Source: an archaeon
GTDB taxonomy: Archaea; Iainarchaeota; Iainarchaeia; Iainarchaeales; JAAZKV01
Assembly: GCA_036170245.1 (NCBI GenBank)
Contig: JAVHOV010000007.1
Coordinates: forward strand, 1 to 57,111
Direction of reading: 5' to 3'
Length of the DNA: 57,111 bases
A program made the position numbers and the translations under genes. Positions 1,780 through 48,047 of the stretch are shown here, one piece after another (position 1 is the stretch's first letter; the number at the start of each line of letters is the position of its first letter). The notes under the pieces were generated by a model. The model did not search any database. It was given only the letters and a program-made list of their open reading frames with translations, and was not told where the DNA came from.

Positions 1780-2346
1780 TTAGAGGAATAATTTTAGGGT
1801 TGATGCAGTTAATAGAGGCACCCATAAATTATCATCAAGCGGGATTAGTTCTACTATTGTTGCAACTAGCGCCGCAATTATTGCAAGGTTTATTGGGTAA
1901 AAATAACTTAAACAAAGTAGGGCAACAACAAAGCATGCAGTGCTCCCTTCAAGAGTTTTTTTGCCTAAAATTTTGTGGGTTCCAAAGTTAATTCCTATAA
2001 TTGCTGCGAATGCGTCAGCAAATACCTGCACACTTAATGATGCCAGTATTATTGTTTTATTGTCCTGAAAGAAAAACAATAATAGTATTGCTGATGCGAA
2101 AAAGAATATGGCTGCTTTTCCTGGAAAACTTTTTTCGTTTTCCCGCTCAACGCTCTCAACAATTTTTCCTAAATATGGAAGTTTGACTTTGTATTTTATT
2201 AACGAAGAAACAATTATTCCTAGTGCTAAGAAAAATGAAATAATATTGATGCTGAGGTTTGTTCCTAAAAAATAAATTAGTGCTAAAAAGATTGTTCCAA
2301 AAATTATGTGAATTGATTTTCTTACATATTCTTTTGTGTGTTTCAT
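1780..2346 (-). CDS. CdsA/dolichol-kinase-family (CTP-dependent polyprenol kinase-like) membrane protein
   Basis: 188-aa polytopic ORF with FADAFAAIIGINFGTHK...KTLEGSTACFVV, resembling the CTP_transf_1 / dolichol kinase C-terminal motif. Confidence 0.5.
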   Translation of the reverse strand: MKHTKEYVRKSIHIIFGTIFLALIYFLGTNLSINIISFFLALGIIVSSLIKYKVKLPYLGKIVESVERENEKSFPGKAAIFFFASAILLLFFFQDNKTIILASLSVQVFADAFAAIIGINFGTHKILGKKTLEGSTACFVVALLCLSYFYPINLAIIAALVATIVELIPLDDNLWVPLLTASTLKLFL

Positions 2347-2363: not shown

Positions 2364-3020
2364 TTATTTTTTCTTCATTAATATTAGGTAGTGGTGTTTT
2401 TCGTAAGGTTCAAGCATTATTGTTTGGATGATTTCAAATTCTTTTTCAAGTATTTTCTTTTCTGAAATAAGAATATCTTCTTTGGCTTCTGATTGCGAAA
2501 TGCTTCTTGTTTTTAGTGCAAGCGCAGCAAGTCCTCCTTTTTTCAAAAATTGTGCGTTTCTTACAAATATATCTGCTTGGTTTCTTTGTGAAATATCCTG
2601 AAACATTGAGTCAGCTTTGTGTTCAAAATATTCTTTGTAACTATCAGTTTTTTGTGCATCACTTAAAATTGGGTAAATATTTTCTCGCTTTTCTGCCAAT
2701 TTAGTTAATTTGTTCATTGCAATTTCGGAAATATCAATGCAAAATATTGCGCCTTTCTCTCCGACAATGTCTGATACATGGCTTACTGTTGTTCCTTCTG
2801 CACTCCCTAGGTAGATTATAGTGCATCCTTCAAAAAAGATGCTTTCGCTAAGTCCGTTTTTTATTCCTGCTCCATATTTTGAACGGTAAGGATCCCATTC
2901 GCGATATTCAATATTATCTATAGTAACTAATTTTTCTCCATAAACTCTTTTTCCAGCTAGAAGATTTTTAGTATAAATTCCTTTTCCGTCAGAATATATT
3001 CCATCAAAGATTTGTCTCAT
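2364..3020 (-). CDS. flpA: Fibrillarin-like rRNA/tRNA 2'-O-methyltransferase
   Basis: YREWDPYRSKYGAGI, SAM motif YLGSAEGTTVSHVSDIV and typical length (218 aa). Confidence 0.9.
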   Translation of the reverse strand: MRQIFDGIYSDGKGIYTKNLLAGKRVYGEKLVTIDNIEYREWDPYRSKYGAGIKNGLSESIFFEGCTIIYLGSAEGTTVSHVSDIVGEKGAIFCIDISEIAMNKLTKLAEKRENIYPILSDAQKTDSYKEYFEHKADSMFQDISQRNQADIFVRNAQFLKKGGLAALALKTRSISQSEAKEDILISEKKILEKEFEIIQTIMLEPYEKHHYLILMKKK

Positions 3021-3068: not shown

Positions 3069-3296
3069 TTAAAGTAATTTTAAAAAATCTTCTTTCTCAA
3101 GACCAATTATTTTTATTATCTGTAAAAGTGTTCCGATTTTTAGTTTTTTGTGGTTAGGGATTGTTAAAATATTTCCAAAATTATCTTTTAGAATTATGTG
3201 ACTTCCTTTTTGTCTTGAAATAAAATAGCCTTTTTTTAAAGCAACTTTTATTGTGTCATTTGCAGAGATATTATATAAATTAGGCATGGGCATCAA
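3069..3296 (-). CDS. hicA: HicA-family mRNA interferase toxin
   Basis: 75-aa ORF with GSHIILKD...LTIPNHKKLKIGTL (YcfA/HicA-like). It overlaps the upstream hicB stop. The true start may be the ATG at 3287. Confidence 0.7.
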   Translation of the reverse strand: MMPMPNLYNISANDTIKVALKKGYFISRQKGSHIILKDNFGNILTIPNHKKLKIGTLLQIIKIIGLEKEDFLKLL

Positions 3297-3519
3297 TTGT
3301 TGCCTTTTCTATTGTAATTAGGTGCGACAATTGTTTTGCTTTATTTTTTCCTTTTTCTTCTAAGTATAGTTCTATTGCTTCTTTTATATTTTTCATTGCC
3401 TTCTCCTTTGTATTTCCTTCTGAAATGCATCCTGGCAATGCTGGTACGTATGCTGTATAACCAACTTTTTGTTTTTCTAGAACTACATCAAAGTCGAATT
3501 TCATTTTTTCACTAAACAA
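3280..3519 (-). CDS. hicB: HicB-family (UPF0150) antitoxin
   Basis: YTAYVPALPGCISEGNTKEKAMKNIKEAIELYLE is the typical HicB N-terminal fold signature. It overlaps hicA. Confidence 0.75.
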   Translation of the reverse strand: MFSEKMKFDFDVVLEKQKVGYTAYVPALPGCISEGNTKEKAMKNIKEAIELYLEEKGKNKAKQLSHLITIEKATIDAHA

Positions 3520-3612: not shown

Positions 3613-5025
3613 TTAGTATCTTTTAGCAGTTCTTGGAGTTCTTTTTCCAAATGATGGTTTTGAACGGTTTCCGAATTTATTTTCACCAAATGAAGAGTGT
3701 CCGCTTGGTCTAGAATGTCTTCCTTCTTCGCTTCTGAAACTTGGTCTTGGTCTAAAATCGGAATGGAATTGTCCTTCTTCTCTTCTTTGGTATGGTCTTT
3801 CGCTGTTGTAATAATCCTTATCTTGGCTTGGTGCAGCACTTTCTCCACCATAAGCTGGTCTATCTCTTGAGTAGGGTCTAGCACCATATGCAGGTCTTGA
3901 TCCATATGAAGATCTAGCGCCATAAGAGGGTCTGTCTCTATTGAAAGTTCTAGGTCCGCTACTTGGATAAGCTGGTCTGTCTCTACTAAATGTTCTTGGT
4001 TTAACAAAGTCGCTGTTTCCTCTATTTCCCCAAGTTGAATCTCTTCTTGGTGCAGATGAGTAACTTCTTTCTCTTGGTGCATCGTATACAACTTCTTTTG
4101 GTTCGAATGATGCAGTTGCGTAATTGTCAGTTAATTCTCCGGCAATTCTTGGTCCGAATTTTCTTTTTTGGCTTAAGCTTCCTTCTGTAGGAGGATAGTT
4201 TCCGCTTACTTTAGTCCATGGTTTTCCTGTGTTATTTTTTTCAAAGAATGCTTTTCTTTCTTCAGGAGTAAATGTTCTGTGTTCTGCAGCAAAATCTCTT
4301 TTCTTAATTTCTTTTGTAAAAGTTTCTCTTCTTCTGTCTGCATTTATTTGTTCGTACTCCATTTCTTTTTCTTTTTGTTCTAAAGTTTCTGGTTCATTTG
4401 CAATTAATGTAATTCTTTCTTCAAGTAATTTCTTAGTTTCAGCTGCAGTATTTTCTCCGCCGAAGTAATCAACTTTTAGGGCAATAGCAAGTTTTCCTGC
4501 AATTATTCTTGCTGCTTTTCCTCTCTTAAATCTTGGCAAGTTTTGCAAGAGTGGGTGGTTGAATAAGTGTCCGTGTTTTGGAGACTTAGCATTTTTTCTT
4601 AAGTGTGCAAATAGAGCTTTTTCTGCTCCAAGTACCTGTATAGTTGAAGCTGGCATAAAGCATAATCGTTTCTTTGATCCTGCTTCGCTTAGTAATTTTG
4701 CTCCTATAATTGGTGTAGCAACTTCTGCAAAATTAGGGAATTCTGCTTTCATTTCGGTTTCAATAAATAAATTTAATTTTGCTTTTTCTTCTTCAATTAA
4801 TAAAGTATTTTTTTCAAGGTCTCCGAATTTTTCCAAAGCTTCTCCGCTTGGTGTTCTAACTTGCCATTCGTTTAAATTTTCTCTCATTAAGTTGTTAATA
4901 GAATCAAGGTCGCTTAGTAAGTTAACGGCTTTTATAATGTGTATCTCTTTTCCAGCGAATTTTTCGTTAATTTGTTCGCGTGTTTTTTTAAGCATCTGTT
5001 TTCTTAAGAAGTCTCTTTGTTCCAT
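3613..5025 (-). CDS. nop5: Nop5 (Nop56/58)-like C/D box sRNP core protein, atypical: no apparent N-terminal domain, about 255-aa disordered C-terminal tail
   Basis: Nop-domain motifs GAKLLSEAGSKKRL..MPASTIQVLGAEKALFAHL...KHGHLFNHP...RGKAARIIAGKLAIALKVDYF at aa 108-188. The tail (aa ~216-470) is rich in R/S/P/Y/G with RDRP(A/S)Y repeats. Confidence 0.85.
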   Translation of the reverse strand: MEQRDFLRKQMLKKTREQINEKFAGKEIHIIKAVNLLSDLDSINNLMRENLNEWQVRTPSGEALEKFGDLEKNTLLIEEEKAKLNLFIETEMKAEFPNFAEVATPIIGAKLLSEAGSKKRLCFMPASTIQVLGAEKALFAHLRKNAKSPKHGHLFNHPLLQNLPRFKRGKAARIIAGKLAIALKVDYFGGENTAAETKKLLEERITLIANEPETLEQKEKEMEYEQINADRRRETFTKEIKKRDFAAEHRTFTPEERKAFFEKNNTGKPWTKVSGNYPPTEGSLSQKRKFGPRIAGELTDNYATASFEPKEVVYDAPRERSYSSAPRRDSTWGNRGNSDFVKPRTFSRDRPAYPSSGPRTFNRDRPSYGARSSYGSRPAYGARPYSRDRPAYGGESAAPSQDKDYYNSERPYQRREEGQFHSDFRPRPSFRSEEGRHSRPSGHSSFGENKFGNRSKPSFGKRTPRTAKRY

Positions 5026-5087
5026 ACAATAAATTCATTTATTTGTCTTTATATGTCTTTCTTTAAGGCAAAAAAAGTAGGATTTGC

Positions 5088-6605
5088 TTAAAGAGTGAAC
5101 TTTTCTTGCTCTTTTAGTAATAAGTGCAGTTTTGCATTTAATTCTTTAATATTCACTCTTACTTGCTTTAGAGAATCTCTTTCTCTTACGGTAACAGAAT
5201 TATCTTTTAGTGAATCATGATCAATTGTAATGCAAAAGGGAACTCCAATTGCATCAAGTCGAGAGTATCTCTTTCCAATGCTTCCACTCTCATCATAGTA
5301 TGTTCTAAAGTCTTTTAGTTCTTCCAAAATCTCTTCGGCTTTTTCTGGAAGTCCGTCTTTTTTCATTAAAGGGAATACTCCTACTTCTATTGGAGCCATT
5401 TTTGGAGGAAGAGCTAATACTGTTCTTTGTGCATCAGTTTCTCTTCGAGAGAATGCAATATCAAGCAGTGCGTAAAATGGTCTGTCTACTCCGAAAGCAA
5501 TTTCTATTACATCTGGAATGAATACTTCTCCACTTTCGCTTCTTACTGTGAGTTCAGTTTTAGAATATTTTGAGTGCTGTGTTAAATCATAATTTGATCT
5601 ATCGCTTATTCCAACCATTTCAACCCATCCAAATGAATTAGTTTCTATTTCAAGGTCCCAAGTGTCATCAGAATAAAATGCGCGTTCATCAGTGTGGTGT
5701 TGTCTGAATCTTATTTTTTCAGTTGGTATTCCTATGGAAGTAATTATTTGGTAACTCAGCCACAGGTTCCACGCATATGCTTTGTTCTTCAAATATTTTT
5801 GTTCCATTGCGTCATTTAATGAAATCATGCTCCACTTTGTTTCAGACTTTTGCATGCTTTCAGTCCAAAGAGGAAGCTTTGCTTCTTTTATTTTATTAAA
5901 TGGTTCAAATATTTGCTTCATTTCTTTACTTAAAAACATTTGTGATTCAGCTTGAGTAAATTCTCTTTGTCTTACTAAGTGCTGTCTTGGAGAAATTTCG
6001 TTTCTAAATGCTTTTCCTATTTGAAAAACAGTGAATGGTAGTTTTCCTCTGAAGAAATTAACGTAGTGCTTGAACGGTAAGTAAGTAGTAGTAGCAGTTT
6101 CTGGTCTGTTGTATGCAACAGTGTCTTTTCCGATTGTTGTTTTCATCATTAAGCTTTGTCTTTGTATTTCAAGTATAAATCTGCCTTTGCATGTAGGGCA
6201 AGTTATTTCATGTTCTTTAATTGATGCAATTAATTCTTCATCCTTAAAGTGATCTGCAGCAATTCCGGTTGCTTCTTCAATTAATTTGTCTGCTCTAAAT
6301 GTTGCTTTGCATTTTGAGCAGTTGATTATTGGGTCATTAAATCCTTTTAAGTGTCCACTTGCTTCCCAAATAATTTGTGGGCTAATTAGAGGGTATTCCA
6401 CTTCAAAGAAACCATTTTTTGTAAATACTTCTCTGAAAGAATTTTCTAGTTTGTTCTTCATTGCTTTTCCAACTAGCCCGTATGAATAAAATCCTGCGAT
6501 TGGTCCGTATAATTCTGGTTCAGGTCCGTAGACAAAATCTTTTTCTGATAAGTATTTTGCAAGTTCTAGTTGGAAATCTTTTTTTTGAGTTTGGGTTTCA
6601 ACCAT
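5088..6605 (-). CDS. glyS: Glycyl-tRNA synthetase (archaeal/eukaryal alpha2 type)
   Basis: YGPIAGFYSYGLVG, FRNEISPR and QREFTQAE class II motifs. C-terminal anticodon-binding region. 505 aa. Confidence 0.9.
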   Translation of the reverse strand: MVETQTQKKDFQLELAKYLSEKDFVYGPEPELYGPIAGFYSYGLVGKAMKNKLENSFREVFTKNGFFEVEYPLISPQIIWEASGHLKGFNDPIINCSKCKATFRADKLIEEATGIAADHFKDEELIASIKEHEITCPTCKGRFILEIQRQSLMMKTTIGKDTVAYNRPETATTTYLPFKHYVNFFRGKLPFTVFQIGKAFRNEISPRQHLVRQREFTQAESQMFLSKEMKQIFEPFNKIKEAKLPLWTESMQKSETKWSMISLNDAMEQKYLKNKAYAWNLWLSYQIITSIGIPTEKIRFRQHHTDERAFYSDDTWDLEIETNSFGWVEMVGISDRSNYDLTQHSKYSKTELTVRSESGEVFIPDVIEIAFGVDRPFYALLDIAFSRRETDAQRTVLALPPKMAPIEVGVFPLMKKDGLPEKAEEILEELKDFRTYYDESGSIGKRYSRLDAIGVPFCITIDHDSLKDNSVTVRERDSLKQVRVNIKELNAKLHLLLKEQEKFTL

Positions 6606-11039: not shown

Positions 11040-11342
11040 ATGGTTCATGTAAAAGTTACTAAAGAATTAATAAAAAAAGTTGCTCAAAATGCAAGATTAA
11101 ATTTGACTGATGCTGAGCTTGAGAAATTTGTTCCTCAAATAAAAGAAATTATCCTGTCTTCTTTTAACAAACTTGATGAATTTGATGCTAGTGACACAAA
11201 ACCTTCTTTTCAGCCAATTGAAATGAGTAATAAATTTAGAAAAGATGAGGTTAGAAAAGGAATTACTCAAGAAGAAGCTTTGAGTAACGTTATTTTGAAA
11301 TTAAAGGAAGAGGGTTATTTTAAGGGTCCAAAAGCGATGTGA
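11040..11342 (+). CDS. gatC: Asp/Glu-tRNA amidotransferase subunit C
   Basis: 100-aa ORF directly upstream of gatA/gatB, with VAQNARLNLTDAELEKF...L and DTKPSFQP motifs. Confidence 0.85.
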   Translation: MVHVKVTKELIKKVAQNARLNLTDAELEKFVPQIKEIILSSFNKLDEFDASDTKPSFQPIEMSNKFRKDEVRKGITQEEALSNVILKLKEEGYFKGPKAM

Positions 11343-11375
11343 TTTTTTAGTAATTTGTGTTTGAGTTGAATTTTT

Positions 11376-12791
11376 ATGAAAAGAGAAGAAACAATAGAAT
11401 TTTTTGTTGAGAATGCAAAAAAGGATTTTTCAGTTGTTGAAAAAAACCTTGCTCAAATTATCGGCGAAATAAAAGACAGTGAAAGAAAGGGGTTAAATTA
11501 TATTGAAGAATTTGATGCTAAAGATGTTTTAAATCAGTTGGCTGAATTAAAGAAGAGTTTTGAAAAAAAAGATTCAAAATATTATGGGCGATTGTTTGGG
11601 GTTCCTGTTACTGTTAAGGATGCAATTTGCGTTAAGGGAATTGAATCAAAAGCCGGTTCAAAGATTCTTAAAGGCTATAAGCCTCTTTTTGATGCAACTG
11701 TAATAGAAAGAGCAAGAAGAGAAGGGGCAATAATTTTAGCAAAAACCACTCAGGATGAATTTGGTTTTGGAACATTTTCAACTCACACAATTAAAGTTCC
11801 AAAGAATCCTTTTGATTCAGAACGTTCTTGCGGTGGTTCAAGTGGTGGGGCGGCTGGATTCACTTCTTTTACAAAGTCATATCACGTTGCAATTGGGGAA
11901 AGTACTGGCGGATCAATTGCGTGTCCTGCATGCTTTTGCGGTGCGGTTGGTTTCACTCCGACTTACGGGTTAGTTTCCAGATTTGGTTTGATTGATTATG
12001 CAAATTCTCTTGACAAGATTGGAGCTATTGGAAGAAATGTTAGTGATGCTTCACTGTTACTTGAAGTAATTAGTGGTCTTGATGAGAAAGATTCAACTTC
12101 ACTAGGTAATGGGTTTGAAAGAGCTGAAGTTTTGCTCAAAAGAATTGCAGTTGTAAAAGATTTTTTCCAAAACTGTGATGCTGATGTAAAAAAAGTAATT
12201 CAAAATAAAATTAATGAATTGAAAAAATTTTATATTGTTGAGGAAGTTTCTCTGCCTCTTAATATTGAGTATGCTTTAAGTGCATATTATGTTATTGCAA
12301 CTAGCGAAGCTTCAACTAACCTTGCAAAACTTTCTGGATTAAGATATGGTGTTCAGGATGATGTTGAAGGAAAGCACTTTGATGAATATTTTTCAGAAAT
12401 TAGAAGCAAAGAATTTAGTGAAGAAGCGAAGAGAAGAATAATTTTAGGGACATTTGCAAGAATGAGTGGATTTAGAGATGCTTATTATTTGAAGGCAATG
12501 AAAGTTAGAACTAAATTAATTGAAGAATTTAATACAGCATTTGAAAAATATGATTTGTTAATTTATCCGACAATGCCTACAATTGCTCCAAAATTTATTG
12601 ATATTGAAAAATTGACTCCTATGCAGAATTTTGCGATGGATCTTTGCACAGTTCCTTCAAACTTAGCTGGTCTTCCTCATATTAGTGTTAATGCTGGAAG
12701 AGTAGGGAATATTCCTGTTGGTTTGATGATAGTTGCACCTCATTTGGAAGAAAAACGATTATACTCTCTTGCAAAGGTGATTGAAGAATGA
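11376..12791 (+). CDS. gatA: Asp/Glu-tRNA amidotransferase subunit A (amidase family)
   Basis: Amidase signature GGSSGGAAGF...GESTGGSIACPA. Its stop overlaps the gatB start (ATGA). Confidence 0.9.
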   Translation: MKREETIEFFVENAKKDFSVVEKNLAQIIGEIKDSERKGLNYIEEFDAKDVLNQLAELKKSFEKKDSKYYGRLFGVPVTVKDAICVKGIESKAGSKILKGYKPLFDATVIERARREGAIILAKTTQDEFGFGTFSTHTIKVPKNPFDSERSCGGSSGGAAGFTSFTKSYHVAIGESTGGSIACPACFCGAVGFTPTYGLVSRFGLIDYANSLDKIGAIGRNVSDASLLLEVISGLDEKDSTSLGNGFERAEVLLKRIAVVKDFFQNCDADVKKVIQNKINELKKFYIVEEVSLPLNIEYALSAYYVIATSEASTNLAKLSGLRYGVQDDVEGKHFDEYFSEIRSKEFSEEAKRRIILGTFARMSGFRDAYYLKAMKVRTKLIEEFNTAFEKYDLLIYPTMPTIAPKFIDIEKLTPMQNFAMDLCTVPSNLAGLPHISVNAGRVGNIPVGLMIVAPHLEEKRLYSLAKVIEE

Positions 12792-14197
12792 CTGATAATA
12801 CAAGCATAATGATTGGTCTTGAAGTTCATGCATACCTTGGAACTAAATCAAAATTATTTTGTTCCTGTTCGTCCTCTGCAACAAATATTCCAAATTCTCA
12901 AGTTTGCCCGATTTGCCTGGGGCACCCTGGAAGTAAGCCAGTGCTAAACGAAGCAGTAGTGGGACTTGCAACAAAGGTCGGTCTTGCATTAAAATGTAAA
13001 ATCAATGAAGATTTTTTCTTTTCAAGAAAAACTTATTTTTATCCTGATATGTGCATGAATTACCAAATTACTCAGTATGAGGTTCCTATTTGCGGGCCGG
13101 GAGAATTAGTTCTTCCAAGCGGGAAAAAAATTAGGATCCGAAGAGCTCACATTGAATGGGATCCCGCAGCTTTAATTCATCCAAATGGAATGGGAAAAAG
13201 TAATTACGTTTTGATTGATTACAATAGATCGGGCTTGCCATTAATTGAAATTGTAACAGAACCGGATATTTCTTCTCCTGCTGAAGCAAGAGAATTTATG
13301 AATACTTTAGAAAATATTTTAAATTACTTGAGGGTATTAAGGCCTGATACTACTCTGAAAGCTGATTGTAACATTTCAATTAACGGTGGGAACAGAGTTG
13401 AAATAAAGAATGTTTCGGGGTTTGCTGCTGCAGAGAAAGCTCTTACTTACGAATTTTCAAGACAGAAGAATGAAGTAAAAATGGGCAGAGTAATTGAGCA
13501 GCATACTCGTGCATATAATGCGGAGAGCGGAGTAACTAACGAATTAAGAAAAAAAGAGACTGAAGATGATTATGGTTATATTTTTGATCCTGATTTGGTA
13601 AAAGTTTCGTTGAGCAAAACTTTCATTGATGCAGTGAAAAATGAAATGCCTGAACTTCCTGAAGAGAAAGTGGCAAGATTGAAGAAAGAATTTAATTTTT
13701 CAGATTATGATGCTAGTGTTTTGTGCGGGGATTATTATTTAGGAAAACTTTTTGATGAAATGATAAAGTTAAAATCAGATTCAGTGGTTTCTGCAAGATT
13801 GCTTACTCGAGAATTGCTTTCAGTATTAAACCATGATTCGATTTCTTTAAGTGAAATAAAAATTAATCCTCTTGATTTAGTCGAACTTGTGAATTTAATT
13901 AAGGAAGGAAAAGTTTCTGACAAGAATGTAAAACAGTCAGTGATTAATTATATTTCAGGGGATAAATCTTCTCCTAAACATTTTTTGGAAAAGAATAACT
14001 TGCTTATTTCAACAACTATTGATTTGGATGCTATTATAGAGAAAGTTATTGTTTCAAATGAGAAAGCAGTAACTGATTATAAGTCAGGAAATGAAAAGAG
14101 TTTCAACTTTTTAGCAGGTTTAATCATGCGTGAAACTAAGGGGACGGTCTCTCCTCAAAAAGTTCAGGAAGTTCTAAAACAAAAACTTTCCAATTAA
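12788..14197 (+). CDS. gatB: Asp/Glu-tRNA amidotransferase subunit B
   Basis: IGLEVHAYL, CPICLGHPGSKPVLN, RAHIEWDPA and a C-terminal YqeY-like tail. Confidence 0.9.
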   Translation: MTDNTSIMIGLEVHAYLGTKSKLFCSCSSSATNIPNSQVCPICLGHPGSKPVLNEAVVGLATKVGLALKCKINEDFFFSRKTYFYPDMCMNYQITQYEVPICGPGELVLPSGKKIRIRRAHIEWDPAALIHPNGMGKSNYVLIDYNRSGLPLIEIVTEPDISSPAEAREFMNTLENILNYLRVLRPDTTLKADCNISINGGNRVEIKNVSGFAAAEKALTYEFSRQKNEVKMGRVIEQHTRAYNAESGVTNELRKKETEDDYGYIFDPDLVKVSLSKTFIDAVKNEMPELPEEKVARLKKEFNFSDYDASVLCGDYYLGKLFDEMIKLKSDSVVSARLLTRELLSVLNHDSISLSEIKINPLDLVELVNLIKEGKVSDKNVKQSVINYISGDKSSPKHFLEKNNLLISTTIDLDAIIEKVIVSNEKAVTDYKSGNEKSFNFLAGLIMRETKGTVSPQKVQEVLKQKLSN

Positions 14198-17313: not shown

Positions 17314-17402
17314 TGGGCAGGAGGAGATTTGAACTCCTGACCGCACGATTACTGATATTTTAATTATCAGTCGTGTGCTCCAACCAGCTGAGCTACCCGC
17401 CC
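17314..17402 (-). tRNA. tRNA-Ile (anticodon GAU) with about 15-nt intron at the canonical 37/38 position
   Basis: Minus-strand cloverleaf. Acceptor GGGCGGG/CCUGCCC, D-arm GCUC-AGCUGGUUG-GAGC, anticodon stem CACGA/UCGUG, loop CUGAUAA interrupted by AUUAAAAUAUCAGUA (17350-17364), T-arm AGGAG-UUCAAAU-CUCCU. The intron UAUCAG pairs with CUGAUA. Confidence 0.85.
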
Positions 17403-17593: not shown

Positions 17594-18505
17594 ATGGATG
17601 CCTTTTCCATTTTTGATAATGCTCATACTTGGTTAAATAGAGGGGTTTTTGTTCATGGAACTTCTTTTGAGATAAAAGAAATCCTATTGCATCTTACTAT
17701 TCCTTTTGTTATTAAAAAACTCAAAATAAAATACAATAAATTAAAAGAATGGGCAAGCGGTAGAAAGCCAATTTCAATTAGCGACCTAACAAAATTAGTT
17801 GAATTATGCCCCGTTGATTTAAGTAATTCCATAAAGTCAAAATTGAGTCTAAAGGACTTACGATTTAGTTGTAAATACTCCCCTCATAAAGTAAAATTCC
17901 CCTTAACTATTTCTGAAAATTTAGCATACATTATAGGAATTATACTTGGCGATGGGACTTTAAGCGGAAATAAAAATAAAAAGAAAAGTTGGGTAATAAG
18001 GGTTTATTTTGATAATCTTCAGCACAGACTAATTTTTAATGAATTAATGGAGAAAGAATTTGGAATACAACCAATTAATAGCCAAAGAAAAAAGAATTGC
18101 TTTGAATCAACAATAGCTTCAAAAATTATTTATCTTTATATTAGCAATTATTTTAATTTACATGTTGGGAGAAAAGCAAATAAAATAGAGTTCCCAAATA
18201 ACTTACTTAGCGGATCTAATGAGATAAAATGTGCTTTAATCCAAGGGTTATTTGATTCTGATGGAACAATAACTCACGGCGCAGTCAAATATTCAACAAC
18301 AAGTAAGATAATGGCTGAACAAGTCAGAACAGTTCTTTTGGAAATGAACATAGATACAGGGCTAAATGTTTGGCTTAAAGATGCAAAATACTTTCCTTTA
18401 TATATAGTTTCGATAAAATCAGGGAAGAATAAACTGATTTTTGCAGAAAAAATTGGGTTCAAACACCCAATTAAAAAGATTTTGCTTGAAGATTTATTTT
18501 ATTAG
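17594..18505 (+). CDS. Double-motif LAGLIDADG homing endonuclease, free-standing
   Basis: LAGLIDADG motifs LAYIIGIILGDGTL (about 17921-17962) and ALIQGLFDSDGTI (about 18233-18271). N-terminal extension of about 110 aa. The stop codon at 18503-18505 overlaps tRNA-Gln nt 1-2. Confidence 0.85.
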   Translation: MDAFSIFDNAHTWLNRGVFVHGTSFEIKEILLHLTIPFVIKKLKIKYNKLKEWASGRKPISISDLTKLVELCPVDLSNSIKSKLSLKDLRFSCKYSPHKVKFPLTISENLAYIIGIILGDGTLSGNKNKKKSWVIRVYFDNLQHRLIFNELMEKEFGIQPINSQRKKNCFESTIASKIIYLYISNYFNLHVGRKANKIEFPNNLLSGSNEIKCALIQGLFDSDGTITHGAVKYSTTSKIMAEQVRTVLLEMNIDTGLNVWLKDAKYFPLYIVSIKSGKNKLIFAEKIGFKHPIKKILLEDLFY

Positions 18506-28361: not shown

Positions 28362-30293
28362 TTAGCCTTTTACAATTAGTATTTCTTTCTTTAATAATTC
28401 GCTAAGTATTTTTCCATCCACTCCTTTGAGTGAACTTTCTTTCATCAAGTCTCCCATTAGTGGTCCTATTGCACCCATTCCTTTTGCTTTTACTAATCCT
28501 TCATTTTTCTTTATGACAATTTGAATAGTTTTTTGGATTTCTTTAGTATCAACTTTGTTGTTTTCTTTTGATAGTATTATTTCTTCCAGTGTTTTTCCTT
28601 TTGAAATTTCAATAACAGCTTCACTTAAATCATTTTTAGATATTTTTCCTTTGCTTTCAGAAAGTAGTAATTGTCTCAAATCTTCGTTAGTTATTTTTTC
28701 TATTTGTATATTGTTTCTCTTTAGTTCAGTTAGAGTTTGAAGTAATAATCCTGCAGCAACTTTTGGATTTGCTCCTTGTGCAATTAATTCCTCAAAGAAT
28801 CTAGCAAAATTATTTAGTTTCATTTCTTCAACGTGGTTTGTGCTTAATCCTAGTTTTGTGTAATATTCTTCTCTTTCTTTTACGCTTTTTGGTAATCCTT
28901 TTTTTAGAACAGTAACATATTTTGGATCAATTTCTCTGAATGGTATATCAGTTTCAGGGTACATTCTTGCTTCCCCTGCAATTGGCCTTTGGTATTCGCT
29001 TGAACCGTCTTCAAGTGCTCCTCGTGTTTCCATTGGAACTTTTTCAAATGCAACTTGTGTTCTAGCTTTTATTGCTTCAAATGCTTTCTCTGCTCTTTCT
29101 TTCTCTGCTACAATTAAAATAAAATTATCTTCATTATTGCACTTCAGTGCTTTAACTATTTCATCAACTTCTTTTTGAGTGATTCCGTAATTTGGCAATT
29201 CATCTCTGTGAAGCAGTCCGCTAACTCCTGTAGCTTTTCCATATGCACTTAATTCAGAACCAAATCTCTTTGCTCCAACTTTTTCTCCTAAAATTCCTTT
29301 CATTTTGTTTAATTTGATCCCAAATACTGTTCGTGGTGAAGCCGTCGCTTCACTACGCCCTGCAAAAGCCCCTGCTTTTGCTGGGTTGCCTTTAACGAAT
29401 TTGCATTCAGTGTTTTTGAAAATGTTTGTTACTTCCATTTCGTTTTGGAATATTTCTTCTCTTTCTTTAGCATTAAATTTTTTGTTCAAAATTTCTTTAA
29501 TTTTAAGTAAATCAACTTGTCTTTCTGCTTCGCATTCAACAACAGTTTTTATTTGTTCAAGATCCTGGCATCCCTTAATTTCGCATCTGTTTCCCTCTGC
29601 GATTGAAACATTAACATCCTGTCTGATAGTTCCTTTTCCTCTTTTTGTGCTGCATGTTAGTCTCATTAGTTCTCCAATCTTTTTGGCGGTTTCGAAAGCT
29701 TCTTCTGGCGTTTTAATATCAGGGTCAGTTGCTAGTTCAATTAATGGAATTCCAAGTCTATCTAAATTGTAGTAAATTTTTCCTGCTTCTTTTTTTATTG
29801 GTCTTGCTGCATCTTCTTCTAGAACTATAGTTTGTACCCCTATTCTTTTTTGTCCTTCGCTTGTTGGAATATTCAGTTCTCCGCCTAAGGATACTAGGGT
29901 AGTTCTCTGAAATGCGCTAGTGTTTGATCCGTCAATTACTGTTTTTCTCATTGTAACAAGTTTATCCACTGGGTGCGAGTTGCATAACAGTGATACTTCA
30001 AGAACAGTTTTTAGTGCTCCCTCATCCATTTCTTGGGGAGGTTCTTCATCTAGTTCAATTAGTGAAATGTTTTCTTTTTTTCCTGAGTAATAAAATGTTT
30101 CGTTTCTTTTGAATGCATCAAGGGCAGTTTTATCGTATTCTCCTAGTTCGCTTGCAACCGGTCGGAGTTTTCTTTCTACAGTAAAATCAAATTCGTCGCT
30201 TAATACACTTGGTGTTCGCATAAATAGTTTTCCAGTGTCAAGCTGTTGGTGTACTTCAAGTCCGACTTTTAGTCCAAGTTTTTTATAATCCAT
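28362..30293 (-). CDS. gatE: Glu-tRNA(Gln) amidotransferase subunit E
   Basis: GLKVGLEVHQQL, a GatB/E catalytic core and a C-terminal GatB/YqeY-like tail. 643 aa. Confidence 0.9.
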   Translation of the reverse strand: MDYKKLGLKVGLEVHQQLDTGKLFMRTPSVLSDEFDFTVERKLRPVASELGEYDKTALDAFKRNETFYYSGKKENISLIELDEEPPQEMDEGALKTVLEVSLLCNSHPVDKLVTMRKTVIDGSNTSAFQRTTLVSLGGELNIPTSEGQKRIGVQTIVLEEDAARPIKKEAGKIYYNLDRLGIPLIELATDPDIKTPEEAFETAKKIGELMRLTCSTKRGKGTIRQDVNVSIAEGNRCEIKGCQDLEQIKTVVECEAERQVDLLKIKEILNKKFNAKEREEIFQNEMEVTNIFKNTECKFVKGNPAKAGAFAGRSEATASPRTVFGIKLNKMKGILGEKVGAKRFGSELSAYGKATGVSGLLHRDELPNYGITQKEVDEIVKALKCNNEDNFILIVAEKERAEKAFEAIKARTQVAFEKVPMETRGALEDGSSEYQRPIAGEARMYPETDIPFREIDPKYVTVLKKGLPKSVKEREEYYTKLGLSTNHVEEMKLNNFARFFEELIAQGANPKVAAGLLLQTLTELKRNNIQIEKITNEDLRQLLLSESKGKISKNDLSEAVIEISKGKTLEEIILSKENNKVDTKEIQKTIQIVIKKNEGLVKAKGMGAIGPLMGDLMKESSLKGVDGKILSELLKKEILIVKG

Positions 30294-30364
30294 TTTTTGT
30301 TCAACTCTTTAACTATAGTTTTTGTTATATTAAAATTAGATTGAGAAAGGATTAAAAAATAGTT

Positions 30365-30388
30365 AAAGCGACTAAATTCAGTCGCTTT
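30365..30388 (-). terminator. Hairpin downstream of the Tyr-rich peptide gene
   Basis: AAAGCGACT-n6-AGTCGCTTT with flanking T/A runs, between the end of the 121-aa gene (30403) and the gatE start (30293). Confidence 0.4.
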
Positions 30389-30402
30389 TTTAATTTAAAA
30401 TT

Positions 30403-30768
30403 TTAGCAGTAACCGTAGTATCCGCACATACTTCCGCCGTATCCTATTGATATTCCCCATCCGTCAGAATCGTAGTATGACATACTTCCGCCGTATCCTC
30501 TATAGGGGTTTACATATGCAGCTGGTGCAGCGTAGGTGTAACCATATGTTGGGTAAACTACTGGCACTGAGTAGTATGATGGATAGTAAGAAGTGTAGTA
30601 AGTTGGGTATGTGTATGCTGTGTAGGGAGTGTATGCTGGTGTTGGGTAGTATACGCTTGAACCATAAGTTCCTGTGTAATAGTATCTATTGAACCCTGAG
30701 TAAGCCATTACTGTGCTTGAAAGCAAAACTAATGCTAATAATATTCCTAAAAGGTATGCATATTTCAT
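30403..30768 (-). CDS. Secreted Tyr/Thr/Pro/Gly-rich low-complexity protein
   Basis: Signal peptide MKYAYLLGILLALVLLSSTVMA, then about 99 residues with about 30 Tyr (hand count), a duplicated GYGGSM motif and a C-terminal Cys. Confidence 0.6.
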   Translation of the reverse strand: MKYAYLLGILLALVLLSSTVMAYSGFNRYYYTGTYGSSVYYPTPAYTPYTAYTYPTYYTSYYPSYYSVPVVYPTYGYTYAAPAAYVNPYRGYGGSMSYYDSDGWGISIGYGGSMCGYYGYC

Positions 30769-30865
30769 CGGACTTCACCTGTATATATTACTCCAAACCA
30801 AGTATATAAACCTTATCCCTCGTTAACCGGAACGAGTTATTAAGTGGTTATTTGGGGGATTTTAT

Positions 30866-32215
30866 TTATTCCTCGGTGTAAGTATCAGTTCTTGTGAATG
30901 GAGTTATTTCTCCTCTTAAGTTCTTTGATAATAGTTCTTTAGCTTCTTTTGCAGAATAATTTCCAAGAAGCCAAGATAATTTCATAATGGCAGTTTCTGG
31001 TAGCATATCTTCACAGTACATTGCGCCAGTTGCAGCAACTTTTCGTAAATTAGTATAAACAGTTGAACTTACTCTTCCGTTTAAGCATTGTGAAGTTATT
31101 CCTACAATGCATCCACTTTCAACTAATTCTTTTAATGCTTTAATGAATGAATCATTTTCTCTTATTGGAGTGTGTCCTAGTCCCGTTCCTTCAATAATAA
31201 GTCCTTTATATTTTTCTTTTTTGTAAAATTCAAGTTCTTTTTCACTGACAAAAGGATGCATTTTAATTAATCCTACTTTTTCTTCAAAATTGTTTATTAA
31301 TTTAAAATTCCCTTTTTGTTTTTCAAATTCATTTTTGTCTTTTATCCATTTTATTTCTTTTGTTCGATAATCAACTAGTGCAATTGGTGTGTCATTTATT
31401 GCTTTAAATGCATCTCTTCTTGAAGTATGCATTTTTCTTACTTTTGTAGCATTAAGTATTGCACAATTATCATCGTTTGTAGAGTTGTGCATGCATACTG
31501 CAACTCCCTTGTAATTTGTTTTTGTAATAAACAATCCAGCGCAAATTAAATTCATTGCAGCGTCAGAACTTCCTCTATCTGAACTTCTTTGTGCTCCGAC
31601 AATTATTACAGGTATTGGACAATTCTCAAGTTCAAATGCGAGTGCAGCTGCGCTGTATCCAAGCATATCCGTTCCGTGTCCGATGATTATTCCCTTTACT
31701 CCTTTTTTTATTTGTTCAGCAACGGTTTGGGAAATTTTTTTCAAATGCACTGTTTGTATATCTTCTGACATCATATTTGCAACAAAAACAGATTCAATGT
31801 TTGCTATTTTTGCTAGTTCCGGAAACATTGTAATTAAATCTTCTAAATTAAATGAGGCGCTTACTCCTCCACCTGAGTAGTTTACTCTTGAAGCAATTGT
31901 TCCTCCAGTGTGGAGTATTGCAATTGTTGAAAGGGTTGGATCTTTTTTGATTTCAATTGTTTTTGCTTTTCCTACTGCCTTTGCTTCGCCTAAAGATTTT
32001 ACATTTTTTATTTTTGTAGTCAAGAATCCTGCATTGTATCCTGAATCAAGTTTAATCATTACTATTTCTTCATTTTTGTCAGAAGGAATTATTATTCCTT
32101 TTATTTTGTTTCCTTCAAAATCAAATTCTATTGAGTTTCCTTCGTTTATAGAATTTTTTTTGTAGAATTCTGTGTTATTCATTTTGATTCCCTTCTGATA
32201 ATTAATTAATTCCAT
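30866..32215 (-). CDS. gatD: Glu-tRNA(Gln) amidotransferase subunit D (asparaginase-like)
   Basis: HTGGTIAS, GHGTDMLGY and an asparaginase fold. 449 aa. An alternative ATG lies at 32182. Confidence 0.9.
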   Translation of the reverse strand: MELINYQKGIKMNNTEFYKKNSINEGNSIEFDFEGNKIKGIIIPSDKNEEIVMIKLDSGYNAGFLTTKIKNVKSLGEAKAVGKAKTIEIKKDPTLSTIAILHTGGTIASRVNYSGGGVSASFNLEDLITMFPELAKIANIESVFVANMMSEDIQTVHLKKISQTVAEQIKKGVKGIIIGHGTDMLGYSAAALAFELENCPIPVIIVGAQRSSDRGSSDAAMNLICAGLFITKTNYKGVAVCMHNSTNDDNCAILNATKVRKMHTSRRDAFKAINDTPIALVDYRTKEIKWIKDKNEFEKQKGNFKLINNFEEKVGLIKMHPFVSEKELEFYKKEKYKGLIIEGTGLGHTPIRENDSFIKALKELVESGCIVGITSQCLNGRVSSTVYTNLRKVAATGAMYCEDMLPETAIMKLSWLLGNYSAKEAKELLSKNLRGEITPFTRTDTYTEE

Positions 32216-39093: not shown

Positions 39094-40347
39094 ATGGATT
39101 ATGATGTAAAGGACATTAATTTAGCTGAACAAGGTGCAATGAACATAGAGTACGCTGAGACTCAAATGGGTGCGCTTTTAGAAATTAGAAAAAGATTTGC
39201 AAAAGAATTACCACTTAAAGGTGTAAGAGTGGGAATGGCTCTTCACGTTACTAAAGAAACTGCTGTATTAGTTAGAACTTTAATTGCTGGCGGTGCACAA
39301 GTTGCAATCACTGGATGTAATCCATTAAGTACTCAAGATGATGTAGCAGCAGCTTTGGCTAAAGAAGGAGTAAAAGTTTTTGCCTATAAAGGAGAAACTA
39401 AAGAAGATTATTACAAATACTTGCATAAAGTTCTTGATTTCAAACCAAACGCAACTATTGATGATGGATGCGATTTGATTAGCGAGATTCACACAAAACG
39501 AACTGAATTAATAAAAGATTTAATTGTTGGTACTGAAGAAACTACAACTGGAGTTATTAGAGTAAGAGCAATGGAAAAAGATAATGCGTTGAAGTATCCA
39601 GTAATTGCAGTTAATGATAACCAGACAAAGCACTTGTTTGATAATTATTATGGAACAGGGCAGAGTACTCTTGATGGAATAATGCGAGCAACTAATGTAT
39701 TATTCGCAGGTAAAACTGTTGTAGTAGTTGGTTATGGTTCATGCGGTAAGGGAGTTGCACTAAGATCAAAAGGTTTAGGTGCAAATGTAATAGTAACTGA
39801 AGTTGATGCAGTTAAAGCACTTCAGGCACAAAGTGACGGTAACAGATTAATGAAAATGGAAGATGCTTGCAAGTTAGGAGATATTTTTATTACAGTAACC
39901 GGAGACAAGCATGTAATTTCAACTCAACACATGAATAACATGAAGAATGGTGCAATAATGGCTAACTCTGGTCACTTTGATATTGAAATTGATGTGAAGG
40001 GTTTAGATAGTATGGCTAAATCAAAGAGAAGAATAAGGTGGCAACTTGATGAATATGTTCTTCAGAGTGGAAGAAAAATTTATTTGTGCGGTGAAGGAAG
40101 ATTAGTAAATTTAGCAGCAGCTGAAGGTCACCCAAGTGAAGTAATGGATTTGTCATTTTGCGGTCAGGCTTTAGCACTTGAATTTGGTGTGAAGAATAAA
40201 GGCAAGTTAGGAACTAAAGTTCATGTATTGCCTCAAGAAGTTGATGCAAAAATTGCAGAACTTAAGCTTCAAGCTCTTGGACTTCACATGGATGAGTTAA
40301 CTCACGAGCAATTGATGTACTTAGGGTCTTGGAAAGAAGGAACCTGA
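39094..40347 (+). CDS. ahcY: S-adenosyl-L-homocysteine hydrolase
   Basis: NAD-binding VVVGYGSCGKG, TEETTTG, GHFDIEID and a typical archaeal length (417 aa). AGGTG precedes the ATG. Confidence 0.9.
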   Translation: MDYDVKDINLAEQGAMNIEYAETQMGALLEIRKRFAKELPLKGVRVGMALHVTKETAVLVRTLIAGGAQVAITGCNPLSTQDDVAAALAKEGVKVFAYKGETKEDYYKYLHKVLDFKPNATIDDGCDLISEIHTKRTELIKDLIVGTEETTTGVIRVRAMEKDNALKYPVIAVNDNQTKHLFDNYYGTGQSTLDGIMRATNVLFAGKTVVVVGYGSCGKGVALRSKGLGANVIVTEVDAVKALQAQSDGNRLMKMEDACKLGDIFITVTGDKHVISTQHMNNMKNGAIMANSGHFDIEIDVKGLDSMAKSKRRIRWQLDEYVLQSGRKIYLCGEGRLVNLAAAEGHPSEVMDLSFCGQALALEFGVKNKGKLGTKVHVLPQEVDAKIAELKLQALGLHMDELTHEQLMYLGSWKEGT

Positions 40348-42254: not shown

Positions 42255-42362
42255 ATCCAAGTACTTTAATTTTTTCTAAAAAGCAGTTATTTTTTTTGCT
42301 TTTCAAGTGGATTAGAAATCTTTAATAAATGAATTTTAGCATAATTCTGGTAGTGTTTGGTA

Positions 42363-43304
42363 ATGGAATCGGTTCTTTTGAAATGGTTTAGTAATCTTTC
42401 AAAAGAGAGCGTTGGCGAAGCTGGTGGTAAAGGAGCTTCTTTAGGAGAAATGACTAAAGCAGGTATTCCTGTTCCTAATGGTTATGTTATTTTAGCTTCT
42501 TCTTTTGAAAAGTTTTTAGAAAGTACAGATCTTAATGTTGAAATTGATTCAATTTTAGAAAAAGTGAATCATAAAGAAATGCAGTCAATTGAGAGTGCTT
42601 CTGAAGAAATTCAAGCATTGATAATGAATGCAAAAATGCCAAAGGATATTGAGAAAGAAATTGTTATTAGTTTTAAAAAATTGGATTCTGTTTTTGTTGC
42701 GGTTCGTTCAAGCGCAACTAGTGAAGATTCATCAAGTGCAGCTTGGGCTGGACAACTTGACAGTTTCCTTAATACAAAATCAGATACTTTGCTTGAGAAT
42801 GTAAAAAGATGCTGGGCATCACTTTTCACTCCAAGAGCAATTTTTTACAGATTTGAAAAAGGATTGCATGATGCAAAAATAAGTGTTGCAGTTGTAGTTC
42901 AAAAAATGGTTAATTCAGAAATCAGCGGAATTGCTTTTTCAGTTCATCCTGTTACTCAGGATAGAAATCAATTAATTATTGAAGCAGGTTTAGGTTTAGG
43001 TGAAGCAATAGTTTCTGGGCAAATTACTCCTGATTCTTACGTTATTGAAAAAGTTCCAAGAAGAATAATTGATAAAAATATAAGCGAACAAGAGAGAGGA
43101 TTATTTAAAGTTGAAACTGGAGGAAGCGAGTGGAAAGAAAATCTTCCAAGAGGAAAAGAGCAGAAACTTTCTGACAAACAAATAATGGAACTTGCTGAAA
43201 TAATTTTAGGAATAGAAAAGCACTATGGTTTTCCTTGCGATATTGAGTGGGCATTTGAAGGTGGAAAGTTTTTCATAGTTCAGTCAAGACCAATTACAAC
43301 TTTG
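42363..43304 (+). other. Domain: PPDK_N-type ATP-grasp nucleotide-binding domain of the giant ORF
   Basis: The motifs listed for the parent CDS. Ends at QSRPITTL. Confidence 0.8.
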
Positions 43305-46300: not shown

Positions 46301-48047
46301 AAAAGTTTATTCAAGAAATTTTTCAGTCTTAAGAATGCAGTTTCTGAGTGATGGTGCATATTATTCAATAAAAGAGCTTACAAACGGAAAGTATTACTTT
46401 ACTCCACTTTTTATCAAAAGTTCTGATGAAGTGGTTAATGCTTATTATGATTTCTCTTCTCCCGAGCAGGATCCTAAAAAGATACTTTCTTACTTGAATG
46501 AAAATATTCCTTTTGTAAAAGAAAAGTTTTCAGAAATAAAAATTGTTTGCGCGAAAGTGAATGAAATAATAAAGAAAAATGATTTTTCAAAAGCAAGGTT
46601 TGTTTTTGATAGTGTGAAAAAGGTTCAGCCGTTTAGTACACTCGGAAAATTGATTGGAGAAGTTCCTAATCCTCCAAAAGATTTGTTTGATATCTTTGCA
46701 GGATTTAGGTTTGACTATGATGGGTTAATGTATAGGGCTGAAAAGTTCTTGCTTGATAGTGCAAATAAAAAAGGATTTGATGATGCTGATTATTTGACTT
46801 TTGAAGAAATTTTTGAAGGAATTGAAGCAAAGAATCTTCTAGAACGTAAAAAAGGATTTGTGTTTTTCAGAGGAGAAATAGTTTTGCTTGAAGATAAGGA
46901 TGAGTTTCTTAATAAAAATAATATTATAATTAAAGATCAAGATTTTGGCAAAACTAGTGATTTTTCGCTAAAGAAAGTTGAAAAATCCATTTCAAGGGAT
47001 TTGCCGCTGTCCAATAGTTATGTATGGCATTATGGCTATTCTGAAGGAATGCTAAAAGAACTTGAGTGGAGGTATTCTGACACTATTTTCTATCAGCATG
47101 AAGGGCACGTTGACATTATTCGCGACCCAAATGAGCAAAATGTTTTGTTTAAGGAATTTGTTTATAGCAAAATTAAATCTTCGAAAGATTGGTTTTCAGC
47201 TCTTTCAAAGCGCTATTCTGATCTTCTAAATGAAGCAGATGATTTTTATAAAAAGAATAATTCTATTGATAAGAAATCAAATAAGAAAATTGCGAAAATA
47301 CTTTTGGAATATAATTTGTTAATCGGAAAAATAATGGGTCCTTTTATTGTGATGTACTGGATTCCTAATTGGTTTGAAAAAGAATCTGATCTAAAAAAAG
47401 AAATTGGAATTGCGATTAAATATAGGAAAGCTTCTGAAGATATTTTTCCAAAAGGAGATGAACTTGTAAGAAAGATTCTTGGTCGAGTAGAAAATGAATT
47501 AAAATTGGAAAAAGGTTTAAAGAATTTTATTAGTTACTCTGAATTGCTGAATTTTTTGACCAAAGGGGTATTGCCTGACAATAATTTGCTTGTTAAAAGA
47601 AAAGAAGGAATCATTTTTTCAAATGCAAGTTTAATGGCTGTAAATGAAGATAATTTGGATGTTGAACTTGCAAAGCTTGGATACTATTATGAAAGAATAT
47701 CCCAAGATAAAGTTAGCCAAATAAAAGGGCAGAGTGCTTTTAGAGGCAAAGTATGTGGCAAAGTAAAAATAATTCTAAATAAGCATGAAATAAAGAATTT
47801 TCCTCAAGGTTGTGTCTTGGTCTCCTCAATGACTACTCCTGAATATGTTCCTGCGATGAATAAAGCAATCGCATTTGTAACTGATGAAGGCGGAGTGACT
47901 TGCCACGCAGCAATTGTTTCAAGGGAACTAAAAGTTCCTTGCATTGTTGGGGCTAAAATTGCTACTAAAGTTTTGAACAACGGTGATTTAGTTGAAGTTG
48001 ATGCGAATAGCGGAATTGTCAAAATACTAGAAAAATCAAAAAAGTGA
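42363..48047 (+). CDS. Giant PEP-synthase/PPDK-family protein: one N-terminal ATP-grasp (PPDK_N) domain, three PEP-utiliser phosphohistidine swivel domains, no PEP/pyruvate TIM-barrel domain
   Basis: An uninterrupted ORF (ORF track 42357-48047; first ATG at 42363). N-terminal motifs are [50 protein letters not shown] and [20 protein letters not shown]. There are three copies of G(G/S)xT(S/C)HAAI(V/I)(S/A)RE...PC(V/I)xG. Confidence 0.85.
   Translation: [1894 protein letters not shown]
44574..44888 (+). other. Domain: phosphohistidine swivel (PEP-utilisers mobile) domain 1; catalytic His codon at 44763-44765
   Basis: [21 protein letters not shown]...[44 protein letters not shown]...[10 protein letters not shown]. 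Confidence 0.8.
45948..46256 (+). other. Domain: phosphohistidine swivel domain 2; His codon at 46131-46133
   Basis: [18 protein letters not shown]...[44 protein letters not shown]...[10 protein letters not shown]. Confidence 0.8.
47721..48029 (+). other. Domain: phosphohistidine swivel domain 3; His codon at 47904-47906
   Basis: [18 protein letters not shown]...[44 protein letters not shown]...[10 protein letters not shown]. Confidence 0.8.

Follow-up and report, generated by a model that had tools for sequence, protein, structure and literature searches.

How a box C/D ribonucleoprotein (RNP) can hold its methyltransferase when the domain that normally does so is missing is the question raised by a nop5 gene in a 57,111-nucleotide stretch of archaeal DNA (contig JAVHOV010000007.1 of assembly GCA_036170245.1), referred to here as the window. 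The gene lies on the reverse strand at 3613–5025, stop codon included, and encodes a Nop5 of 470 amino acids that lacks the fibrillarin-binding N-terminal domain (NTD). We find that loss of the NTD is conserved across the phylum Iainarchaeota (Diapherotrites) and is not peculiar to the window genome. The textbook assembly, in which the NTD holds fibrillarin, cannot apply in this phylum, and it is a reasonable inference, already drawn in the first-pass annotation of this DNA, that C/D RNP assembly is altered.

The only domain recognized by Pfam in the window protein is the Nop domain (PF01798, residues 58–205, E 7.6e-35), and neither NTD family (NOP5NT, PF08156; PF21572) was matched. With the NCBIfam aNOP56 equivalog model NF011121, whose cutoff is 452 bits, the score is 180.8 bits, and the match is confined to C-terminal model positions 247–411 of 417. 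When aligned to sequences in the PDB, residues 13–55 correspond to 124–166 of Pyrococcus furiosus Nop5, which form the first coiled-coil helix, and residues 79–208 to 246–375, the second helix and the Nop domain. Archaeoglobus fulgidus Nop5 aligns in a single stretch, either as residues 6–127 to 53–170 or as 6–192 to 53–240. The published NTD limits are 1–123 in P. furiosus, 1–132 in Sulfolobus solfataricus and 1–71 in A. fulgidus (PMC7962484). Because the alignments start at the NTD end, the protein begins where the NTD ends. The proposal that the fibrillarin-binding domain is absent, made in the first-pass annotation from the sequence alone, is thereby borne out, as is its placement of the segment IIKAVNLL...NEW at residues 30–54.

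A linker helix (residues 2–22) is followed by a two-helix coiled-coil hairpin (residues 26–57 and 62–95), encoded together at 4741–5025 on the reverse strand and predicted by AlphaFold2 with a local confidence score (pLDDT) of 79–98. The alignments show that the coiled coil lacks the tip insertion and belongs to the short type seen in A. fulgidus. The Nop domain core (residues 96–208; 4402–4740, reverse strand), which has the L7Ae/K-turn-binding fold, carries an intact GAEKALF...PKHG...RGK.AR...K...D signature, in which G133, A134, K136, A137, L138, F139, P149, K150, G152, G169, R173, K178 and D186 show no variation among 71 sequences, NTD-less and canonical. The AlphaFold2 model, built from a 71-sequence alignment, has a confident fold over residues 1–265, with pLDDT above 90 over most of residues 1–250, and its top Foldseek matches are Nop5, Nop58 and Prp31, among them 3nvi_A with a target-normalized TM-score of 0.69. 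By phmmer the protein is closest to archaeal Nop5 (E 1e-35), followed by Nop58 (1e-18), Nop56 (1e-16) and Prp31 (1e-12). There is one Nop-domain open reading frame (ORF) per locus and per window, and no second Nop-domain gene is present in any of the DNA examined, comprising the 57-kb window and the related loci described below. The best reading, by sequence and synteny, is that the archaeon, one of the Iainarchaeota (Diapherotrites, DPANN), encodes a genuine orthologue of Nop5 here.

The upstream boundary of the gene leaves no space for a missing domain. The start codon is the ATG at 5025–5023, and an in-frame TGA (5035–5037, reverse strand) stands four codons upstream, with 9 nucleotides between it and the ATG. 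The TAA that ends glyS (5090–5088), the glycyl-tRNA synthetase gene upstream (5088–6605, reverse strand; identified by Pfam and synteny), is separated from nop5 by a spacer of 62 nucleotides (5026–5087, reverse strand), which contains a T-run behind glyS and the A/T-rich segment ATATAAAG. Located approximately 20–27 nucleotides before the ATG, ATATAAAG is a possible archaeal TATA box. The in-frame TGA and the end of glyS only 62 nucleotides away make an N-terminal extension of nop5 impossible, in agreement with the earlier remark that there is no room for an NTD. The sequence between 2300 and 5300 is identical, with zero differences, in four independent groundwater-metagenome assemblies, and the same 470-residue protein is encoded on 10 contigs, two NCBI assemblies among them. 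In a search for RNA-seq evidence, the sequence was present only in groundwater DNA metagenome runs. An upstream extension or a frameshift was considered and is ruled out by the TGA and glyS, by the start point shared with relatives, and by the identical assemblies.

Relatives of the protein share its architecture. The 40 closest protein clusters (263–484 residues, 45–81% identity) all start with MEQRDFLRK... or a close variant and carry PF01798 only; homologues from Thermococcus carry PF01798 together with the NTD family PF21572. Using a scan of one genome per species, we recovered 23 contigs from 22 related species, including members of Candidatus Iainarchaeum and Forterrea, which belong to the Iainarchaeota (the former Diapherotrites). 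The start point of nop5 is the same in all 22, and the gene order glyS, nop5, flpA (the fibrillarin gene), membrane protein is conserved. In every one of the 20 loci whose contig extends far enough, flpA follows nop5. Most of these loci have 4–100 nucleotides between glyS and nop5 and 24–190 nucleotides between nop5 and flpA. Six of the contigs (L024–L029) encode orthologues of just 206–212 residues that have no C-terminal tail and no NTD either (e.g., 3726–4346 of L025), located 24–265 nucleotides upstream of flpA, or up to about 1.1 kb in L028. These proteins are candidates for the smallest natural Nop5.

We also identified a second, more distant class of NTD-less Nop5, which starts at the coiled coil and retains the full tip. 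Its first helix and GAEKAL are 158 residues apart, as in canonical Nop5, compared with 103 residues in the window protein. Here too flpA comes directly next, with a stop/start overlap of 4 nucleotides in L040. In total, at least about 130 protein clusters have the NTD-less architecture. In an exhaustive HMMER search of 1.84 billion representatives, roughly 60 of the 150 top-scoring clusters (formed at 50% identity) are NTD-less, and those of the 60 that have a named source are from Diapherotrites. Database names for these proteins are inconsistent and include hypothetical protein, NOP5/NOP56 family, NOP58 family and Prp31.

The fibrillarin encoded at the locus is canonical, as the first-pass annotation had it. 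The flpA gene (2364–3020, reverse strand) encodes 218 residues that match the Pfam family with an E-value of 5.3e-67, contain the catalytic aspartate (D142) and the S-adenosylmethionine (SAM) motif, and align to P. furiosus fibrillarin with single-residue gaps only. Identity within the clade is 60–84%. Archaeal fibrillarin has a conserved tyrosine in the middle of its interface with the NTD (Y102 in P. furiosus; PMC7962484), whose counterpart in the window protein is F93; the position is F or Y across the clade and thus always aromatic. In the window, flpA lies 592 nucleotides downstream of nop5, and a hicB-hicA toxin-antitoxin pair (3069–3519, reverse strand; assigned by Pfam) stands between the two. 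In most relatives the genes are adjacent, and the hicBA insertion is seen only in contigs of the window organism. The window also carries a gene for S-adenosylhomocysteine hydrolase (39094–40347, forward strand), indicating that the by-product of fibrillarin and other SAM-dependent methyltransferases can be recycled in this organism.

Beyond the Nop domain, the window protein has two C-terminal elements. The first is a lineage-specific, highly charged helical extension (residues 209–268; 4222–4401, reverse strand) with predicted helices at 215–249, a single helix of 35 residues, and 254–265. Residues 209–265 have pLDDT values of 75–97. The short helix that ends the extension bears the motif TFTPEERKAFF (residues 251–261; 4243–4275, reverse strand), which in 34 cluster representatives is conserved as T[FW]TPEER[KR]A[FY]F at constant spacing from the Nop domain. 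No homologue of the extension (residues 195–300) was detected among solved structures, and alignments to Nop56 that reach residue 264 probably reflect charged composition.

The second element is a basic tail (residues 269–470; 3616–4221, reverse strand) made up of 15% R, 14% S, 11% P, 9% G and 7% Y, with a net charge of +18. AlphaFold2 predicts disorder over residues ~270–470, and pLDDT is below 50 for almost all of residues 277–470. Three [FY][SN]RDRP[AS]Y repeats (residues 346–392; 3850–3990, reverse strand), read from the sequence, are set between hexapeptide repeats of the form S/A-Y-G-x-R-P: FSRDRPAY at 346–353, FNRDRPSY at 361–368 and YSRDRPAY at 385–392. These are the same three repeats that had been noted at first reading, and Tandem Repeats Finder reports a repeat with an 18-nucleotide period at 3875–3933. 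The tail ends in a conserved basic C-terminus, ...SFGKRTPRTAKRY (residues 458–470; 3616–3654, reverse strand), and most tailed relatives end in K[KR][YFW]. Between the TFTPEER motif and this C-terminus, the relatives' sequences are rich in R, S, P, Y and G, unalignable, and very variable in length, the tail as a whole ranging from 0 to about 280 residues.

Ratios of nonsynonymous to synonymous substitution rates (dN/dS), calculated against two orthologues, are 0.11–0.13 for the core, 0.36–0.44 for the extension and 0.29–0.60 for the tail, which shows that the tail is translated and constrained, though loosely. The first-pass annotation described a 255-residue R/S/P/Y/G-rich tail unlike those of typical archaeal Nop5. 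The tail is indeed coding and unusual; however, the first ~55 residues of that segment (209–265) are predicted to be helical and conserved rather than disordered. Tails of at least 100 residues occur in 67 of 136 NTD-less representatives and in one of 100 NTD-bearing representatives in one sample, a contrast that is confounded by shared ancestry. The tail may resemble eukaryotic RNA-binding tails in general character, but with no RGG and a single RG it does not have the clustered RGG/RG of a GAR/RGG domain. RGG/RG-rich tails are found on two second-class relatives, P0054 (6001–7362 of L042) and P0131, with segments such as ...RGFGGQERGG...RGRHGG.... Among the other putatively cytoplasmic ORFs of the window, none is similar in composition to the tail. 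The only other low-complexity ORF of such a kind in the window, at 30403–30768 on the reverse strand, is secreted-looking: its 121 residues comprise a signal-peptide-like N-terminus and an extremely Y/T/P/S/G-rich body (YYTSYYPSYY...).

The explanation that we prefer, in which we place even confidence, is that this protein is a streamlined, functional Nop5 that would still partner fibrillarin by a route independent of the NTD. The common ancestor of the clade would have lost the fibrillarin-binding NTD, and in the window's sub-clade only a short coiled coil would have been left. The retained parts would act as they do in solved C/D RNPs, the Nop domain by binding the L7Ae-K-turn complex and the coiled coil by dimerization, and Nop5 would work with fibrillarin in the 2'-O-methylation of rRNA or tRNA. 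That nop5 stayed directly upstream of flpA throughout the clade makes it most likely that the partnership was kept. The partnership is also favoured by the linkage to a conserved, canonical flpA in both NTD-less classes and by the intact Nop domain. Archaeal fibrillarin alone is inactive, and its heterodimer with Nop5 can methylate rRNA in the absence of guide RNA; the nop5-fibrillarin operon is retained in mesophiles that have few C/D RNAs (PMC5558902). In vitro, archaeal fibrillarin alone cannot recognize small RNAs (sRNAs) (PMC1865073).

Three candidate routes can be named by which fibrillarin might be held. It could contact the Nop domain near its SAM (AdoMet) pocket, as in the A. fulgidus Nop5-fibrillarin structure, where an arginine of Nop5 touches the fibrillarin tyrosine at the AdoMet site, it could be held through the guide-target duplex, or, in the tailed sub-clade only, it could be bound by the conserved C-terminal extension and its motifs. 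The basic R/S/P/Y/G-rich tail would be an accessory, fast-evolving disordered module, dispensable in the relatives that lack it. Its probable role is non-specific RNA binding or tethering. As the 206–212-residue orthologues have no tail, it is not a universal substitute for the NTD.

Several points weigh against a retained partnership. To our knowledge, recruitment of fibrillarin independent of the NTD has been demonstrated nowhere. In every characterized system, fibrillarin enters the RNP through the NTD of Nop5, Nop56 or Nop58 (PMC7962484). With neither NTD nor tail, the 206–212-residue orthologues leave the coiled coil and the Nop domain as the sole docking surface that could be universal. 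Strict and one-mismatch C-D'-C'-D patterns, which recovered a synthetic positive control, turned up nothing resembling a C/D sRNA across 315 kb of Iainarchaeota DNA; this is a low-power negative in a mesophile. A looser C...D pattern with a terminal stem had no matches in the window, where Rfam reports three tRNAs only. The conserved synteny could simply be inherited. Lastly, insertions of 0.7–2.5 kb, or of hicBA, separate nop5 from flpA in some genomes, which implies that tight co-transcription is not obligatory.

Some of these same points favour a rather unlikely alternative, in which the protein is an uncoupled factor similar to Prp31 that does not recruit fibrillarin at all. It would bind and stabilize L7Ae-K-turn RNPs or serve as a scaffold in ribosome biogenesis, FlpA would act independently or with another partner, the adjacency of the genes would be inherited, and the tail would add RNA binding. 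A coiled coil and a Nop domain followed by a disordered C-terminal region, with no NTD, is the layout of Prp31, itself interpreted in a recent survey as a duplicate of Nop5 without the NTD (10.1101/2024.06.21.599552). Foldseek matches the model to Prp31 structures (2OZB and 3SIU) with target-normalized TM-scores of 0.61–0.64, no C/D sRNA pattern is found in the 315 kb, and insertions between nop5 and flpA are tolerated. However, isolated archaeal fibrillarin is inactive and unable to recognize sRNAs in vitro (PMC5558902; PMC1865073), and FlpA is still highly conserved and canonical. Adjacency to flpA holds in both NTD-less classes, with Nop5 identity down to approximately 35%, and includes the stop/start overlap in L040. 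The sequence is also far nearer to Nop5 than to Prp31.

A broader formulation, which embraces both the retained partnership and the uncoupled factor, is that Iainarchaeota fibrillarin runs without an NTD tether, by a new mode of recruitment or beside a Nop5 that has converged on Prp31, and that the arginine-rich tails are a prokaryotic counterpart of the GAR and KKE/D tails that was gained along with NTD loss. We regard this complete set of propositions as unlikely. In a new recruitment mode of this kind, fibrillarin could be bound directly by the Nop domain or the coiled coil, or through short docking motifs that end the charged helix and the tail.

The last of these options can be considered in its own right. 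In the tailed clade only, the T[FW]TPEER[KR]A[FY]F helix, the K[KR][YFW] C-terminus, or both may have replaced the NTD as docking motifs for fibrillarin. The helix lies at a constant distance from the Nop domain in the 34 representatives and within a region of good predicted confidence (pLDDT 75–97 over residues 209–265), the C-terminal end is conserved across tails that are otherwise unalignable, and it is almost exclusively NTD-less proteins that have long tails. Nevertheless, the motifs are absent from the 206–212-residue orthologues and from most second-class proteins, next to which flpA still stands, and shared ancestry confounds the association of tails with NTD loss. We consider such a replacement quite improbable.

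The NTD might instead be a small protein of its own, acting in trans and encoded by a gene too diverged or too distant to be seen, and the first-pass annotation had suggested that the domain is encoded elsewhere. We searched for it with a hidden Markov model (HMM) of 38 long-type NTDs and with phmmer using two short-type NTDs, for which positive controls gave E-values of 1e-32 to 1e-48. No NTD-like ORF was found in any of the six frames of the 57-kb window or of about 300 kb of related loci (best E 0.2–0.4), and the suggestion thus receives no support within this DNA. Three relatives (L010, L011 and L013) carry insertions between glyS and nop5 whose genes are unrelated to the NTD, and the tables of nop5 neighbours contain no NTD Pfam family. 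Two specific candidates were rejected. The first, a 124-residue ORF that precedes nop5 in L042, is not recognized by Pfam, and its hhalign probability against the NTD alignment is 0.2%. Fusion of the NTD to fibrillarin is contradicted by FlpA lengths of 217–226 residues, single-residue gaps relative to the P. furiosus protein, and the lack of an extra domain. On the other side, the Nop5 NTD is poorly conserved in archaea and comprises only about 70 residues in A. fulgidus (PMC1865073; PMC7962484), such that a diverged copy could evade the HMMs, and the DNA covered amounts to 57 kb of the window genome and flanks of about 10 kb in the relatives. Overall, we give a split gene little chance.

An artefact, be it an assembly error, a gene call cut short or a pseudogene in decay, can be dismissed as vanishingly improbable given the identical sequence in four assemblies and on 10 contigs, the start point common to at least 40 clusters and 22 related species, the upstream in-frame stop with glyS only 62 nucleotides away, and dN/dS values well below 1 throughout nop5.

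The NTD-less protein can be compared with several characterized systems. With canonical archaeal Nop5 (P. furiosus, 2NNW and 3NMU; S. solfataricus, 3ID5 and 3PLA) it shares the Nop signature, the preceding coiled coil and the location of its gene upstream of fibrillarin. In contrast to these proteins, it lacks the NTD and the coiled-coil tip (167–245 in P. furiosus), it adds the 60-residue helical extension and the 200-residue basic disordered tail, and its aNOP56 score is far below the cutoff. The nearest natural precedent is the reduced Nop5 of A. fulgidus (1NT2), which has the same short coiled coil and aligns in a single stretch. However, that protein has a small NTD (residues 1–71) that makes most of the fibrillarin interface, and such a domain is missing from the window protein. 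Structurally, the closest precedent is an engineered one, the NTD-deleted P. furiosus Nop5 in 3NVI, whose domain content is essentially equal. This construct was crystallized with L7Ae and C/D RNA, which indicates that an NTD-less Nop5 can assemble on L7Ae-K-turn RNA. It differs in retaining the coiled-coil tip, whereas the truncation described here is natural, fixed in a phylum and accompanied by new C-terminal elements.

Among eukaryotic proteins, Prp31 of the U4/U6 small nuclear RNP has a corresponding layout, with a coiled coil, a Nop domain that reads a K-turn RNP, a disordered C-terminal region and no NTD; the resemblance would represent convergent loss. Sequence similarity to Prp31 is much weaker than to Nop5, and Prp31 coexists with Nop56 and Nop58, whereas the window Nop5 is apparently the only copy, is linked to fibrillarin, and is not orthologous to Prp31 by its closest relatives. 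The survey mentioned above traces Prp31 to duplication of Nop5 and loss of the NTD in early eukaryotes; it covers only proteins of 300–700 residues and, in those passages that were searched, mentions no NTD-less archaeal Nop5 (10.1101/2024.06.21.599552). Our literature search on Nop5/Nop56 in DPANN archaea and Diapherotrites likewise found no description of such a protein. The tail shares with the KKE/D tails of Nop56 and Nop58 and with the RGG/GAR domain of fibrillarin the character of a long, basic, low-complexity and presumably RNA-binding segment on a C/D core protein. However, it is rich in R, S, P and Y, contains repeats of the RDRPxY and SYG types, has no sequence homology to the eukaryotic tails and, compared with the GAR domain, is found on Nop5 and not on fibrillarin. 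The RGG-rich tails of P0054 and P0131 more closely recall the GAR domain of eukaryotic fibrillarin, but they too are on Nop5.

Domain loss in the reduced genomes of DPANN archaea is not surprising in itself. However, current models of box C/D RNPs, archaeal and eukaryotic, all attach the methyltransferase through the NTD of Nop5, Nop56 or Nop58, and the Iainarchaeota contradict this recruitment model as a universal one. Deletion of the NTD across a phylum that kept a canonical fibrillarin, with the two genes remaining together, amounts to a natural experiment on the minimal requirements of fibrillarin, and the Nop5 of about 206 residues offers a minimal natural system for structural work. The loss would also be an independent parallel to the one thought to have produced the spliceosomal protein Prp31, and it is linked to a gain of arginine-rich disordered tails, which are otherwise seen as a feature of the eukaryotic nucleolus.

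Other features of the window deserve brief description. The last gene of the conserved order (1780–2346, reverse strand) encodes a multi-pass membrane protein of 188 residues with a weak match to CTP_transf_1. It is always found downstream of flpA in the clade, and there is no obvious functional reason for this linkage. One of the tRNAs reported by Rfam (17314–17402, reverse strand) occupies 89 nucleotides for a model of 71 positions and is missed by ARAGORN with bacterial settings; it is probably an intron-containing archaeal tRNA. An ORF with a LAGLIDADG_3 domain (17594–18505, forward strand) lies about 190 nucleotides from this tRNA. A 1896-residue ORF (42357–48047, forward strand) combines a PPDK_N ATP-binding domain with three separate stretches of the PEP-utilizers mobile domain, which is an unusually large and repeated phosphotransfer architecture. 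Finally, amidotransferase genes of both the GatCAB type (GatC, amidase and GatB) and the GatDE type (GatE-like and asparaginase/GatD) are present within the same 57 kb, at 11040–14197 on the forward strand and 28362–32215 on the reverse strand.

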